Below are positions 8,742 through 13,223 of a stretch of DNA of 14,207 nt, in pieces. How positions within the stretch are numbered: position 1 is the first letter of the stretch; the number at the start of each line of letters is the position of its first letter. This stretch comes from a virus. Taxonomy: Duplodnaviria > Heunggongvirae > Uroviricota > Caudoviricetes. Below the pieces are notes generated by a model, which was not told the DNA's origin, searched no databases, and saw only the letters and a list, made by a program, of their open reading frames with translations. The stretch lies in IMG/VR virus record IMGVR_UViG_3300005397_000053, one strand, 5' to 3'. The translations under genes and the position numbers were made by a program.

Positions 8742-9080
8742 CTATTTCCCTGAATTTACGACGAAACTGTTCGAGCGGGCTGAAGCATTCATGCTCATAA
8801 CCTTCGCGGAGGTAGATAACCCGTTGTGTTTCCGGCTCCCAACGAATGACTCTGACGGGCACTCCGTAGTGATCTTTGAACCAGCGGTTAACTTGTCGCA
8901 AAGGACTGTCTCCTTCTGCCGGTTGAAATCACCCACAGCCCACTCTGCAAAGCTGTGGGTTACAATTTCCCTGTCACCTGGTACATTCACTGCATAGCAA
9001 TATTCCACCTTCGCTTTTCCACCCGGTACAGGAAGCGCAATCAGTTGCGAGCGACGGTAGTGTGTTGTTAAACTGTTCAT
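8742..9080 (-). CDS. ymfM: Small early-operon protein; I recall it being reported as the SOS-inducible cell-division inhibitor of e14
   Basis: 112 aa ORF between ymfL and ymfN in the rightward-operon equivalent. Confidence 0.65.
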
Positions 9081-9646
9081 GCGTTAGTTTCTCCACAACC
9101 AGAAGCAATCGACGCCACGACGCCCGGAGCTGCACACTCGCGGGCGTCATTACTTTCTGAAATGCAAAAAATTTTGTAGACAAGTGCTGCATGCTCCTGC
9201 AGCTTCGAAATTGAGAGATACAGCTCGTCGTTAATTGCTGTCTTCTCATGCGGTTCCACTACACCGTCTTCGATTGCTGAACGAATCTGTTTTGAATAAC
9301 TGCCGATCTGTTCAATGACTTCCAGCAGACGCTGGTTAATATCGGCGTTGTCCACATCCTCGACGTCAGGAAGAGACACAAAGACGCCATTTGCAGACTG
9401 CGCCACAGCATCAGCAATGAAGTGAGTGCCACCAGCACGCTGTAAAACCATTGCCCATCCCAGCGGGAAAATCTGATCGCCATCTGCACGAAGGCGGTTG
9501 AATAAAGCGTTTTCTGTTACATCGAGCCAGTCAGCCGCTTCAGCGTAACCACTCGGCAACGCCGCGATAGTTTTTCTGACAGCTTTCACGTACCACTCAG
9601 GCTGTTTTTCTATTTTCCAGTGATGCTTACCCACGATTAGCCTCAT
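9077..9646 (-). CDS. ymfL: Early regulatory protein (possibly CII-like)
   Basis: 189 aa ORF immediately downstream of the cro-like gene. 4 bp overlap with ymfM. No motif recognised. Confidence 0.65.
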
Positions 9647-9968: not shown

Positions 9969-10643
9969 ATGAAAACAATCCATGACATCCGGCGGTCTAA
10001 CGCCAGAAAACTGAGAGATGGTGTTGGCGGGAATTCTTCCTTTGCCACTATGATTGATCGCGAGCCAACCCAGACCAGCAGGTTTATGGGAGATGGTGCT
10101 ACTAAAAATATCGGTGACAGCATGGCACGACACATCGAAAAATGTTTCGACCTGCCTGTAGGATGGCTCGATCAAGAACACCAGACAACGAACATCACAA
10201 AAAAACCTGATGTTTCAATCACTAATAAACAAATCACATTAGTCCCTGTCATATCATGGGTACAGGCCGGAGCATGGAAAGAAGTTGGATATTCTGAGGT
10301 TGATTTGAGCACAGCAGAAACGTATCCCTGCCCTGTACCCTGTGGGGAAATGACTTATATCTTGCGGGTAATAGGTGATTCAATGATTGATGAGTACCGC
10401 CCGGGAGACATGATTTTTGTCGATCCTGAAGTACCTGCCTGCCACGGTGACGACGTTATTGCATTGATGCACGATACAGGTGAAACCACCTTCAAAAGGT
10501 TGATAGAAGATGGGACACAGCGTTATCTCAAAGCGTTAAACCCAAACTGGCCTGAGCCTTACATTAAGATCAACGGTAATTGCTCTATAATTGGTACTGT
10601 GATTTTCTCAGGAAAACCAAGAAGATACAAAATCAAAGCCTAA
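9969..10643 (+). CDS. cohE: CI-like prophage repressor with C-terminal LexA/S24 autopeptidase domain
   Basis: 224 aa. S24-type signature (VIGDSM...GDMIFVD...) in the C-terminal half; positioned as the immunity repressor. Confidence 0.8.
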   Translation: MKTIHDIRRSNARKLRDGVGGNSSFATMIDREPTQTSRFMGDGATKNIGDSMARHIEKCFDLPVGWLDQEHQTTNITKKPDVSITNKQITLVPVISWVQAGAWKEVGYSEVDLSTAETYPCPVPCGEMTYILRVIGDSMIDEYRPGDMIFVDPEVPACHGDDVIALMHDTGETTFKRLIEDGTQRYLKALNPNWPEPYIKINGNCSIIGTVIFSGKPRRYKIKA

Positions 10644-10655
10644 TCAATGTTTATG

Positions 10656-10678
10656 AACCTGCTTCGGCAGGTTTTTTT
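10656..10678 (+). terminator. Rho-independent terminator downstream of cohE
   Basis: cctgc ttcg gcagg followed by ttttttt, directly after the cohE stop. Confidence 0.8.
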
Positions 10679-10682
10679 ATAC

Positions 10683-10710
10683 TTGACAATGTACCTTTGA
10701 GATACATAAT
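10683..10710 (+). promoter_or_regulatory. Sigma70-like promoter with embedded operator half-sites, driving ymfJ and possibly xis-int
   Basis: TTGACA (10683-10688), 16 bp spacer, CATAAT (10705-10710). Two ATGTACC copies (10689-10695 and 10708-10714) match the operator core of the cohE/croE region. Confidence 0.5.
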
Positions 10711-10817: not shown

Positions 10818-11126
10818 ATGAATGAGCAGAATTTGAAGCATGTGATCGCATTGTTGCTGGAAGACGCTAAACGTTTGCAGCAGATAGAGCCAAATGCAGG
10901 CACTGAGGCCCGCATTTTGTTAGCAAAACAGGCATTAAAGACTTGCGGGGCGCAAGCCCCTGGTCGAACCGAGTTCATGAATTTCATGGCTAACACACTC
11001 ACCCCTCTGCCATGCAATGGAGAGAAGGTGAGCCGTGTTTATCACGACACAATGGTTAAGGCTTTAAGAATCGAGCTTGATGGGCTTAGGCGTAAGATCG
11101 TAATGAACGAAATCGTTACCAACTAA
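10818..11126 (+). CDS. ymfJ: Hypothetical protein, no recognisable domain
   Basis: 102 aa ORF, first gene downstream of the promoter at 10683. 3' end overlaps ymfI convergently by 63 nt. Confidence 0.6.
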   Translation: MNEQNLKHVIALLLEDAKRLQQIEPNAGTEARILLAKQALKTCGAQAPGRTEFMNFMANTLTPLPCNGEKVSRVYHDTMVKALRIELDGLRRKIVMNEIVTN

Positions 11127-11405
11127 GGAAGCAGACGGAAGTAAGCATGCGCTTTGTTCAAATTTACAGACAAATATATTTGCGTCAACACCGGCACTGT
11201 TAGCAATTGAAAATGTTTGATCAAGGATTTGTTGGCAGTTCATTGTACTTTTGAGGATATATCCCTCTGGAATCAGTCTGCAGCAGCTATCGTCAGACTC
11301 TTTAACTGTTTTCTGGTACAGAAAGTTAAGCATTAATTCTTCAAATTTTTTGGTCTGTTCGGCTGTGTCTTCAAATAGACGAACGTGAACATAAAACTGG
11401 TTCAT
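11064..11405 (-). CDS. ymfI: Hypothetical protein, no recognisable domain
   Basis: 113 aa from the ATG at 11403-11405 (MNQFYVHVRLFEDTAEQ), preceded by an AGGAAAC Shine-Dalgarno-like sequence. The track ORF adds 15 upstream codons. Confidence 0.55.
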   Translation of the reverse strand: MNQFYVHVRLFEDTAEQTKKFEELMLNFLYQKTVKESDDSCCRLIPEGYILKSTMNCQQILDQTFSIANSAGVDANIFVCKFEQSACLLPSASLVGNDFVHYDLTPKPIKLDS

Positions 11406-11521
11406 TAAGTTTCCTTGCTTGCTGGCTGTGTGAGAACTCCAGCATACCACCGAGCCTGAAGTGGTGAAAAGACAGGCACATAACAGCTAAGTATTTTCAA
11501 CCAGAGAGAATCCTTAGCGTT

Positions 11522-11833
11522 GTGGTGAATGCGGCTCAGCGCACGCGGGTTAAGGTTGAGGCTGACAATCGACCTTCTGTGGATACCCACCCGCCTGGTG
11601 TGCAACCTTCGCCAGGCACCGGGGGCACCCGACACCACAACTTTATGCTGTGTGTAGTCTTGGCGGTACCAGTTTTTTCCTTAGTCCTTTCTGGTACCGC
11701 CCTTTTTACAAAACAGAGAAGAGTATCCCCGGATGACGGGTTAATAACCCGACCCATCCTGATAGCTGTGGCCACAGGTGCTCTTCTCTGTTTTGTGGAG
11801 AAACTAACCGACCGTGCAGGGTCGATATGCTGA
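11522..11833 (+). CDS. Doubtful ORF (GTG start, no clear RBS) encoding a putative two-TM peptide; may correspond to K-12 ymfH. The region may instead be a structured RNA or regulatory DNA.
   Basis: 103-codon ORF with hydrophobic stretches, but the DNA is unusually rich in nested perfect inverted repeats (see findings), which argues for a structural or regulatory role. Confidence 0.25.
   Translation: MVNAAQRTRVKVEADNRPSVDTHPPGVQPSPGTGGTRHHNFMLCVVLAVPVFSLVLSGTALFTKQRRVSPDDGLITRPILIAVATGALLCFVEKLTDRAGSIC
11662..11707 (+). terminator. Strong stem-loop followed by a T-tract (candidate terminator or attenuator upstream of xis)
   Basis: GGCGGTACCAG, a 18 nt loop, CTGGTACCGCC (perfect 11 bp stem), then cttttt. 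Confidence 0.45.
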
Positions 11834-11869
11834 GACTAAGCAGTTAGTGTAGTAATAAGGTGATCGCAT

Positions 11870-12115: not shown

Positions 12116-13223
12116 GAATAATGTTTCAGTCCCTAACTTATATCCGCTTTATAGTAGGAAGGTAAATAAAGTCTATTGGCGGTATAAGCATCCAGTGACA
12201 GGAAAATTCCATGCTTTGGGAACAAACGAAGCTGAAGCTATCGCTATTGCCACTGAGGCCAACACTCGCCTGGCTGAACAAAGAACCCGGCAGATTCTGG
12301 CTATCAGTGACAGGATCGCAACCAGCAAAGGAAAGGCTATCACAACGTCAACCTGGTTAGATCGCTATCAAGCGATCCAGGATGACAGGCTTAAAAGTGG
12401 TGATATAAGACTCAACACCTATAAACAAAAAGCTAAACCAGTATCCTTGCTCAGAGAACGAGCAGGAATGAAGTTGATCTCAGCCGTTGATGTCAGAGAT
12501 ATAGCACAATTGCTTGATGAGTATATCGCCGCTGGGCGGCCAAGAATGGCACAAGTAGTTCGCTCCGTCCTGATTGATGTTTTCAAAGAGGCGCAGCACT
12601 ACGGAGAAGTACCTCCTGGCTATAACCCAGCATTAGCCACTAAACAACCAAGAAGAAAAATTACCCGACAACGGCTGAGCCTTGAAGAATGGAAAAAAAT
12701 CTTCGATATCGCAGACGCTACTCATCGTTACATGGGAAATGCCATGCTGTTAGCGCTGGTTACTGGTCAGCGGTTAGGTGATATTTCGCGTATGAAATTT
12801 AGCGATATTTGGGATGATCATCTTCATGTCATTCAGGAAAAGACCGGGAGCAAAATCGCAATTCCTCTTTCTCTTCGCCTCAATGCGATTAACTGGAGTT
12901 TACGCGATGTAGTAGCCCGCTGCCGTGACTATGCAGTCAGTGCATACTTAGTGCATTTTTTTCGTTCAACTTCACAAGCAGAGCGCGGAGCGCAGGTTAA
13001 AGCCAATACATTGACGATGAATTTTAGTAAAGCGAGAGATTTAGCAAGAATTGACTGGGGAGAGGGTTCACCTGCGACATTCCATGAGCAAAGGTCTTTA
13101 TCTGAACGTCTGTATAAAGAACAGGGGTTAGACACACAAAAACTACTTGGTCATAAAACACAACAACAAACCGATCGTTATCATGATGATCGAGGTAAAG
13201 GATGGAGCAAAGTAGCGTTGTGA
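12096..13223 (+). CDS. intE: Tyrosine integrase (lambda Int family)
   Basis: 375 aa. The C-terminus HEQRSLSERLYKEQGLDTQKLLGHKTQQQTDRYHDDRG closely parallels lambda Int (HELRSLSARLYEKQ...LLGHKSDTMASQYRDDRG), including the catalytic Tyr. Confidence 0.92.
   Translation: MAARPRKNNVSVPNLYPLYSRKVNKVYWRYKHPVTGKFHALGTNEAEAIAIATEANTRLAEQRTRQILAISDRIATSKGKAITTSTWLDRYQAIQDDRLKSGDIRLNTYKQKAKPVSLLRERAGMKLISAVDVRDIAQLLDEYIAAGRPRMAQVVRSVLIDVFKEAQHYGEVPPGYNPALATKQPRRKITRQRLSLEEWKKIFDIADATHRYMGNAMLLALVTGQRLGDISRMKFSDIWDDHLHVIQEKTGSKIAIPLSLRLNAINWSLRDVVARCRDYAVSAYLVHFFRSTSQAERGAQVKANTLTMNFSKARDLARIDWGEGSPATFHEQRSLSERLYKEQGLDTQKLLGHKTQQQTDRYHDDRGKGWSKVAL

Follow-up and report, generated by a model that had tools for sequence, protein, structure and literature searches.

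The 14,207-nt stretch of DNA analyzed here (IMG/VR record IMGVR_UViG_3300005397_000053, referred to as the window) shows 100% identity to Escherichia coli K-12 MG1655, in which it belongs to the e14 prophage. Our analysis indicates that positions 11446-11834 of the window, on the plus strand between ymfI and xisE, probably constitute a non-coding, multidomain RNA module of lambdoid prophages, that is, a small RNA (sRNA) locus built like STnc100/PasD and DicF. The interval, in which the open reading frame (ORF) ymfH has been annotated, specifies a plus-strand RNA with conserved helices, termination at 11707 and a cleavage site or 3' end at 11645, and it contains no conserved ORF. Strictly speaking, the module is neither DicF nor STnc100, as it has its own seed, an extra three-way junction domain and scores below the thresholds of both families.

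Structure and covariation of the RNA module

A preliminary description of the window had noted a concentration of nested inverted repeats at 11519-11800. All of the repeats it named are present: the 9-, 11- and 16-nt pairs are perfect, and the small GCCTGG/CCAGGC, GGGTTA/TAACCC and CTGTGG/CCACAG hairpins can all be seen in the sequence. The extent it gave is too short, the conserved unit running from about 11446 to 11834. Comparison with shuffled controls, which had been suggested as a check, reveals structure beyond chance on both strands. The plus strand of 11441-11834 folds with -169.2 kcal/mol vs. -120.6 ± 6.2 for dinucleotide shuffles (z = -7.9, with 0/100 shuffles as good), and z is -4.8 for the minus strand of the same interval. 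The GC content of the repeat region is 0.51-0.56, compared with 0.37-0.47 in its flanks. The stack of repeats corresponds to the helices of a conserved non-coding RNA module, a mosaic unit of ~390 nt on the plus strand (Table 1).

As for the core of the module, its relatives emerged only from an Rfam search by E-value, there being no match anywhere in the window at curated thresholds. On the plus strand, STnc100 (RF02076) matches 11489-11710 over its full model (1-206) with 29.2 bits and E = 1e-4, and DicF (RF00039) matches 11649-11702, also over its full model (1-52), with 28.5 bits and E = 3e-4. These full-length, sub-threshold matches supersede the earlier view that the region cannot be assigned to any known element. 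A core of the same kind is found in the Qin prophage of K-12, immediately 3' of dicF, between dicF and dicB. The Qin dicF-dicB spacer and the e14 core display ~30 nt of near-identity and have GTGGTGAATGCGGCT(C/G)AGCGCACGCGG and CC(G/T)GG(A)GGCACC(C/A)G(G)CAC in common. Viral and genome collections were also scanned with a gapped pattern; as most non-enterobacterial matches were due to chance, a stricter motif was applied as a filter. This identified >100 distinct core members in enterobacterial phages and prophages, sometimes two to three per contig. Our homologue sets were collected by such sequence patterns and do not represent an unbiased sample.

Covariation in the core was assessed on an alignment of 60 diverse sequences (e14 and 59 family members), in which the alignable helices are P1, P2 and P4; one Qin row lacks 7 nt, shown as gaps, which does not materially affect the counts. 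Standard pairs occupy 94% of the cells of these helices, a share that falls to 37-50% if the partner columns are offset by 1-3 positions. Double-sided changes are found in 115 cells vs. 39 ± 5 in column shuffles, none of the 500 shuffles being as high. P1 alternates between UA/CG and GC/AU and P2 between CCCCC/GGGG and GCGGC/GCGC, while in P4 a G-C pair becomes U-A in the Qin type. The variable middle hairpin, when read directly, covaries within the e14 subtype: GCCUGG/CCAGGC in e14 has as counterparts GUCUGGCG/CGCCAGAU in ST64B and GUCUGGU/ACCAGAC in phiES15. A covariance model produced from this alignment scores e14 at 63.9 bits (E = 1e-15), vs. 74-80 bits for SfV (79.2), ST64B, phiES15 and Qin. 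The e14 score is lower because the K-12 copy, and this copy alone, has lost one nucleotide (an A) from the invariant AGGCA loop, after 11623, and carries a G-to-A change at 11632 that breaks a P4 pair. With these two core lesions, the K-12 copy is partly decayed.

It is conceivable, but doubtful, that the K-12 copy is an inert relic whose transcripts are noise, a scenario that is compatible with our identification of the module. The loop deletion, the stem-breaking substitution and the lower covariance score speak for it, as do the defective nature of e14, with its many truncated genes, and a terminator loop that is unlike the majority type. However, the seed, the terminator stem and the third-domain helix are intact, discrete 3' ends are found at the predicted places, and 283 records, among them non-laboratory isolates, share this allele at ≥99% identity.

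The third domain, which lies 3' of the terminator, is a three-way junction whose closing helix holds the 16-bp pair at its center. This helix is 96% paired over 23 distinct variants, among which four of its pairs are changed on both sides (A-U to C-G and G-C to A-U, in either direction). A pair in a junction helix also covaries between G-C and A-U, in 11 sequences, so that compensatory change affects five third-domain pairs in all. By comparison, the full GGGTTA/TAACCC and CTGTGG/CCACAG hairpins are e14-specific extensions, kept only to 3-4 pairs elsewhere. Compensatory change in stems, another check put forward in the preliminary description, is therefore seen in both the core and the third domain. 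By analogy with Qin, the third-domain helix is a likely candidate for an RNase III site. Further 3', the distal hairpin has a different sequence but a G(U/G)GCA-type loop in other lineages, as read directly (UGGCGGU-GGCA-ACCGCCA in ST64B, GGCGGC-GGCA-GCCGCU in phiNP).

In both alignments, G-U or U-G wobbles account for many of the conserved pairs (22/23 at one position, for example), and these correspond to A-C mismatches on the other strand. Since these pairs form only in plus-strand RNA, the functional molecule is that RNA, rather than duplex DNA or a minus-strand transcript. This is important for another of the options raised earlier, namely that a protein involved in recombination or replication binds the repeats as an array, and more generally for a DNA-level site such as an origin. 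The palindromes, which are dense, perfect and close to xis/int, speak for such a site, but the pairs are kept through G-U intermediates that are meaningless in duplex DNA. Moreover, iterated direct repeats are absent, the context is independent of integrase type, and transcripts end at predicted RNA features. The chance that the repeats act as DNA is vanishingly small.

The leader, with which the conserved block begins in all homologues, includes a segment (11469-11485) that is complementary to the seed and linker (11646-11661) in the minimum-free-energy fold. In the precursor, this modeled pairing may mask the seed. Between leader and P1, where e14 has a hairpin abutting P1, other lineages have a different hairpin and closing helix when read directly (GAUAAGAG/CUCUUAUC in ST64B, GAUGAGAG/CUCUCAUC in sal3). 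In modules of the Salmonella type (L249, at 3040-3170; L158; L252), a ~100-nt insertion closed by GAUGAGAG/CUCUCAUC replaces this hairpin and holds a motif resembling a tRNA T-arm, CTGGTTCGATTCCAG. A tRNA in this insertion, considered in view of its GGTTCGATTCC motif, was rejected when ARAGORN found none. At the left edge of the module (11446), a small gene on the opposite strand begins, with ribosome-binding site and ATG, within ~40 nt in nearly every lineage. This gene is ymfI in e14 and an unrelated hypothetical gene elsewhere (L002, L127, L136, L158, L250, L255 and others), and the leader may also hold or overlap its promoter.

The ymfH frame, the seed and the RNA 3' ends

The ymfH ORF had been suspected to be an annotation artefact, and the homologues bear this out, with frameshifts in nearly all other copies and no codon periodicity. 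The 103-aa reading exists in K-12 only. In 14 distinct homologues, the frame shifts at about codon 35, at an extra A that is missing in K-12, and stops at codon 75. One homologue stops at codon 19, and in L215 a reading of 103 codons survives only by way of other frameshifts. When e14, the SfV type and the Salmonella type are compared, neither strand offers a frame that is open in all three. Relative to K-12, all homologues have indels of a length not divisible by three (+1/+1 or others), and variable columns are distributed 30/34/38 over codon positions 1/2/3 (p = 0.62), with no third-position excess. The frame starts with GTG, and the only Shine-Dalgarno-like sequence belongs to an invariant RNA motif, GGUGAAU. 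PGAP tags the ORF as "frameshifted" in other E. coli, and the curated annotation of SfV leaves the interval non-coding. The ymfH ORF is an artefact of the 1-nt deletion in the K-12 core.

The contrary view, that ymfH is a real protein-coding gene and its repeats are incidental, has in its favor the annotated 103-aa ORF and a plasmid-library screen in which over-expressed ymfH was among the prophage genes that triggered the retron-Sen2 toxin RcaT (bioRxiv 10.1101/2020.06.22.160242). That result is equally explicable as an RNA effect: since the ORF is spurious, the active agent of the clone could be RNA. We consider a coding function highly improbable, and both this reading and the DNA-site reading are essentially excluded.

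As for the stretch between core and terminator, e14 has the linker CUUUAUGCUGUGUGUAGUCUU and the conserved, single-stranded seed GCUGUGUGUAGUC. Seeds of the form GCUGUGUG(U/A)AG(U/A)C are kept although what lies upstream of them is of at least five kinds and they lead into at least five distinct terminator hairpins. Some follow the e14-type core, others a P1-closed insert of another kind (F1055 type) or, directly, the leader (L255, L281 and L293), and in L174 and L179 they occupy the position of dicF, with a Qin-type core and a dicB-like ORF downstream. In the latter two, the same seed plus hairpin sits exactly where dicF normally does, and in phiES15 and L306 the seed precedes unrelated terminator hairpins. 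Judging by this pattern of conservation, an invariant unpaired 13-mer between exchangeable hairpins has the look of a base-pairing seed.

The seed leads into an intrinsic terminator of the DicF type, whose stem begins 20 nt after P1. In most family members, the core is likewise followed by 15-55 unpaired nt and then by a canonical intrinsic terminator. RNA 3' ends at the locus, which the preliminary description had proposed to look up, are available from MG1655 Term-seq data (Adams et al. 2021, PMC7815308, supplementary files 1 and 3). We located them in the window from their sequence and from the offsets relative to the ymfH start listed in the files (-43, +123 and +185), which places three plus-strand 3' ends in the module. 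The end at 11479 occurs in all three growth conditions and gives the strongest signal. The end at 11645, seen in LB at an optical density of 0.4, lies in the A/U-rich linker (AACUUUA/UGCUG, the slash marking the end). The end at 11707, seen in M63 medium, is the last U of the terminator, so that the stem followed by CTTTTT is a working terminator. The ends at 11645 and 11707 are 62 nt apart, which fits a candidate DicF-like product of 62 nt. When folded, this RNA (11646-11707) shows a largely open 5' seed, with a weak 3-bp hairpin only, and a hairpin of -21 kcal/mol. A joint RNase III cut giving the ends at 11479 and 11645 was also considered, and was rejected because there is no 2-nt staggered geometry across the leader-seed helix.

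In the mechanism that we propose, transcription of the module would begin 5' of the leader and proceed rightwards, and the RNA would fold into the leader hairpins and the P1-closed, STnc100-type core before RNA polymerase stops at the DicF-type terminator. As for DicF and StxS, an endonuclease, most likely RNase E, might then cut the A/U-rich linker after A11645. This would free a 62-nt RNA whose 5' seed, UGCUGUGUGUAGUC, would pair in trans with mRNA targets, probably with the help of Hfq. Upon read-through, as on prophage induction, the third-domain helix (≥19 pairs) could be cut by RNase III, and the sRNA would thereby be detached from the mRNA that follows it (that of xisE-intE in e14, and of yfdP and other genes elsewhere). 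Such a cut would mirror the one that generates the 72-nt DicF in Qin.

A series of observations weighs against this interpretation. The e14 scores fall below the gathering thresholds of both STnc100 (29.2 vs. 47 bits) and DicF (28.5 vs. 48 bits, genuine DicF scoring 76.7), and even the intact copies of SfV and phiES15 reach only 39.5 and 40.6 bits for STnc100. The lesions of the K-12 core lie in its most conserved hairpin and leave it 15 bits under SfV, and this copy may be non-functional. The U-tract of the terminator consists of five U only, and the ends at 11645 and 11707 come from different growth conditions. The strongest end, at 11479, falls within the leader segment complementary to the seed and is not accounted for by the model. 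A search for a seed target inside the window returned only the seed itself. Finally, canonical STnc100-type members have a sigma-70 promoter abutting P1 (in L149, TTGACA-18-TAAATT ends 8 nt before the core). With a promoter and a terminator of their own, they are therefore free-standing sRNA genes composed of scaffold, linker and terminator. No convincing promoter was found next to the e14 module, and a promoter scan of 11400-11520 detected no promoter-like site, only weak candidates being visible by eye. The conserved hairpins 5' of P1 argue for a transcript start further upstream, and a start between the ymfJ stop (11126) and 11459 is implied by inference only, from the filtering rule of the Term-seq study (PMC7815308).

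Genomic context and alternative functions

The module is widespread. Of 5,426 complete E. coli genomes, 2,160 match a 501-nt query around the region, at ~90% identity; apart from the e14 allele, most matches are 80-95% identical. Among the matches listed, most span from about 11441/11447 to 11810/11834 and end there. Sequenced phages with the module include SfV, SfII, SfIV, mEp460-like phages and several induced E. coli phages. Salmonella ST64B and 118970_sal3 have a divergent version (75-77% identity), and cdtI phage, Stx2c phages, Cronobacter phiES15 and Citrobacter phiNP have a partial one. In every annotated case, the module is located downstream of a cI-type repressor gene, on the same strand, at the head of the early-left genes.

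What follows the module differs between phages. In e14, where the order is cohE, ymfJ, RNA module and xisE, the latter gene comes directly after the module, followed by intE and then by lit on the minus strand. In SfV and in O157 and O103 prophages, the next genes are yfdP/Q/R/S/T, with xis/int ~3 kb further on. ST64B, mEp460 and phiNP have yfdP/yfdQ-type genes, with no xis/int annotated within the stretch examined, and phiES15, which shares leader, core and seed, has kil and a nuclease-inhibitor gene. These findings bear on the suggestion that the region is an attenuator dedicated to xisE-intE, and hence to excision. In support of this, the terminator is 163 nt upstream of xisE in e14, RegulonDB-type annotation treats intE-xisE-ymfH as one operon (PMC12132413), and the 3' end observed at a terminator located 5' of xisE means that it must limit read-through into xis-int in e14. 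However, the module precedes yfdP/yfdQ/yfdR-type genes in SfV, ST64B, mEp460, O157 and O103, the related leader, core and seed of phiES15 precede kil, and, where seen, xis/int are kilobases downstream and the integrase is different. There is also no sign of an alternative, xis-specific antiterminator pairing. Since it stands upstream of unrelated genes in other prophages, the module is not an excision-specific attenuator, and a role dedicated to xisE-intE is quite improbable. Of the three options listed in the preliminary description, a small RNA is the best fit, while the attenuator and the DNA binding array are not retained.

Another alternative is that the module acts only in cis, as a cassette for the processing, insulation or stability of the early-left mRNA, which its terminator and RNase sites would shape, no fragment of it acting in trans. 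An STnc100-type core also occurs in the middle of an operon in Qin, between dicF and dicB, and the RNase III end of the 72-nt DicF, 19 nt past the 53-nt form, falls inside the 15-bp P1 of that core (our own count on PMC5069750). In addition, conservation extends to the long third-domain helix and to the hairpin preceding the next ribosome-binding site, and the strongest Term-seq end, at 11479, is not an sRNA end. On the other hand, a 13-nt unpaired stretch that remains invariant while both neighboring hairpins are swapped is the signature of a base-pairing seed. Seed plus hairpin fill the dicF slot in other prophages, and the overall architecture is like that of the proven trans-acting sRNAs DicF, StxS and PasD. 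We therefore regard a purely cis-acting module as unlikely and favor an sRNA locus.

Some contigs contain an "empty site" (L255, L281 and L293), in which the leader is joined straight to the seed (GGCACUCAACGAAUUGCUGUGUG) with no P1-closed domain. F1055 and mEp460 have other P1-closed inserts at the same leader-seed point, and a CACAAC(G) motif is found on both sides of the P1-closed insert. Empty sites and alternative inserts at one point suggest that the structured domains are exchangeable cassettes. A bolder proposal, which we put forward tentatively and doubt more than we believe, is that the core does more than form the 5' part of an sRNA and is an autonomous, exchangeable RNA cassette. 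As such, it would represent a novel class of phage RNA domain, serving in processing, as an insulator or in protein binding. The e14/SfV-type RNA of 62 nt would in that case join DicF as a second riboregulator of its kind, also widespread, its GU-rich seed directed at C/A-rich host mRNAs. This would fit the apparent insertion of the core at one fixed leader-seed point, its recurrence between dicF and dicB, where RNase III seems to cut, and the up to three copies found per phage.

Table 1. Features of the e14 RNA module and neighboring genes, in coordinates of the window
Feature	Position	Strand	Remarks
cohE	9969-10643	+	annotated e14 gene
ymfJ	10818-11126	+	annotated e14 gene
ymfI	11064-11405	-	annotated e14 gene
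ymfH (ORF, GTG start, 103 aa)	11522-11833	+	annotated; judged spurious
Leader hairpin CCACC-GAGCCUGAA-GUGG, then AAAAGACAGGCACAUAAC	11446-11485	+	left edge of conserved block in all homologues
Hairpin abutting P1, GCUAAGUAUUUUC / GAGAAUCCUUAGC	11486-11518	+	inverted repeat
STnc100-type core	11519-11641	+	Rfam match, covariation, Qin homology
9-nt pair GTTGTGGTG / CACCACAAC	11519-11527 / 11633-11641	+	100% complementary
P1 closing helix	11519-11527 / 11633-11641	+	same as the 9-bp long-range pair of the preliminary description
P2	11531-11546	+	core helix
Variable middle hairpins, including GCCUGG/CCAGGC	11593-11617	+	core
P4	11619-11632	+	core helix
Single-stranded linker and seed, CUUUA/UGCUGUGUGUAGUCUU	11642-11661	+	putative processing site after A11645 (slash)
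DicF-type intrinsic terminator (11-bp stem, 18-nt loop, U5)	11662-11707	+	inverted repeat, Rfam DicF, Term-seq end
11-nt pair GGCGGTACCAG / CTGGTACCGCC	11662-11672 / 11691-11701	+	100% complementary; CTTTTT directly 3'
Three-way junction domain	11708-11796	+	inverted repeat and covariation
Closing helix, 19 pairs	11708-11726 / 11778-11796	+	16-bp pair at its center; extendable by U-A/U-G into U-tract
16-nt pair ACAAAACAGAGAAGAG / CTCTTCTCTGTTTTGT	11708-11723 / 11781-11796	+	100% complementary
Inner helices	11729-11733 / 11757-11761; 11738-11740 / 11748-11750; 11766-11769 / 11774-11777	+	junction domain
Small hairpin CGACC-GUGCAG-GGUCG	11809-11824	+	upstream of ribosome-binding site of next gene

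Upstream of the module, immediately after the cohE terminator (10655-10674), there is a near-consensus promoter, TTGACA-16-CATAAT (10683-10710), with two direct copies of AATGTACC. It looks like a repressor-controlled early-left promoter (a pL analogue) with its operators. Elsewhere in the window, the same Term-seq data include a very abundant plus-strand 3' end at 9151 (9101-9161), antisense to ymfL (9077-9646, minus strand). Its scores of 1.4e7 to 5e7 are 100-1000 times those of the ends in the ymfH region, and a hairpin, GACGCCCG...GCGGGCGTC, lies just before it. This RNA is probably the cis-antisense candidate ECS003 (antisense to ymfL/ymfM) of Shinhara et al. 2011. Weak minus-strand ends occur at 10991, antisense to ymfJ, and at 13207, antisense to intE. 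In other contigs, C4 antisense RNA and isrK lie side by side above Rfam thresholds (L245, 1232-1420; L246, 1409-1597; L247, 1324-1512; L252, 74-262). These sites belong to the early-right region of SfV-type phages and, in L245, L246 and L247, fall inside the coordinates of an early-right regulator gene. At Rfam thresholds, neither C4 nor isrK matches the e14 window.

If our interpretation is correct, ymfH, one of the y-genes of K-12, should be re-annotated as a non-coding RNA locus, which would add an unrecognized riboregulator of the DicF/STnc100 type to the best-studied bacterium. The module is carried by ~40% of the complete E. coli genomes and is also present in serotype-converting phages of Shigella and in ST64B of Salmonella. 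Prophage sRNAs of this class would appear to be assembled from exchangeable parts (scaffold core, seed, terminator and processing helix), and the RNase III processing of DicF would be tied to a conserved structured domain. The conserved seed would provide a handle on the host genes that temperate phages of this group regulate from their immunity region. A possible RNA-based explanation would also be offered for the ymfH clone that triggers the retron-Sen2 toxin.

Comparison with known RNAs

In the literature that we searched, no link has been drawn between ymfH or e14 and either DicF or STnc100. The put RNAs of phage HK022 resemble the e14 module in that they are cis-encoded, structured RNAs near the start of lambdoid early operons. 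However, put RNAs are ~70 nt long with two stem-loops (PMC9378689), and the e14 core, in contrast to them, is followed by a terminator that stops transcription (Term-seq end at 11707). A put-like antiterminator was rejected on the basis of these differences in size and helix number, and because our core covariance model has no match in the 40.7-kb HK022 genome at E ≤ 1. An N-like antiterminator encoded by ymfJ and acting on boxB-like hairpins was rejected as well, YmfJ being without an arginine-rich motif.

StxS is made from a 258-nt PR'-tR' precursor of Stx phages, which RNase E converts into a 74-nt, Hfq-bound 3' sRNA with a seed (PMC7547250). Here the likeness to e14 is a long structured prophage transcript with an intrinsic terminator, cut by RNase E to a stable 3' fragment. 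StxS, however, comes from a late promoter and has known targets (rpoS and stx1B), and what we compare is the processing route, with no claim of sequence kinship.

According to the survey by Zhu, Shabalina and Storz (bioRxiv 10.64898/2026.05.13.724894), PasD and STnc100 represent one scaffold with different seeds, and Pas genes are absent from K-12. The e14 module has in common with them the P1 closing helix, UGGUGAAU, a P2 hairpin with a bulged A, variable middle hairpins and CACCGGGAGGCACCCGGCACCA. It also shares an unpaired linker and an intrinsic terminator after the core, and a prophage-borne distribution in Enterobacteriaceae. The architecture of the e14 core, with a covarying P1 around UGGUGAAU, the P2 hairpin and CACCGGGAGGCACCCGGCACCA, fits STnc100, apart from the two lesions in the K-12 P4, and its terminator spacing is within the STnc100 range of ~15-55 nt past P1. 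In contrast to STnc100, e14 has a P2 of the GCGGC/GCGC rather than the CCCCC/GGGG type, a different seed, a DicF-like terminator and a sub-threshold score. The location differs too. While the e14 module is immunity-proximal, in the early-left region, PasD is found near Q, LpxR and lysis genes, and one STnc100 copy is 3' of stx2.

DicF has a 5' end generated by RNase E and 3' ends generated by termination (53 nt) or RNase III (72 nt) (PMC5069750). Its seed, UUUCUGGUGACG, differs from that of e14; UGCUGUGUGUAGUC is unrelated to the UUUCUGGUGACGUU of DicF, and the terminator loops differ as well. No specific pairing with ftsZ was seen for the e14 seed, the duplex energy with positions -100 to +60 of ftsZ being no better than that of shuffles (83% as good) in a crude test that ignores intramolecular structure and is weakly positive for DicF itself. 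The order is core then sRNA in e14, but sRNA then core in Qin, and no dicB follows the e14 module. Despite these differences, the two ends of the terminator stem are the same, GGCGGUA.CAG ... CUG..CCGCC-CUUUUU. Both loci occupy an early-left (dicB-type) operon position 3' of a cI/DicA-type repressor gene and are adjacent to a core of the STnc100 type, and, as for DicF, a short e14 RNA would arise by cleavage in an A/U-rich linker and by termination. In two sequences, L174 and L179, an e14-type seed with its hairpin takes the very locus of dicF.

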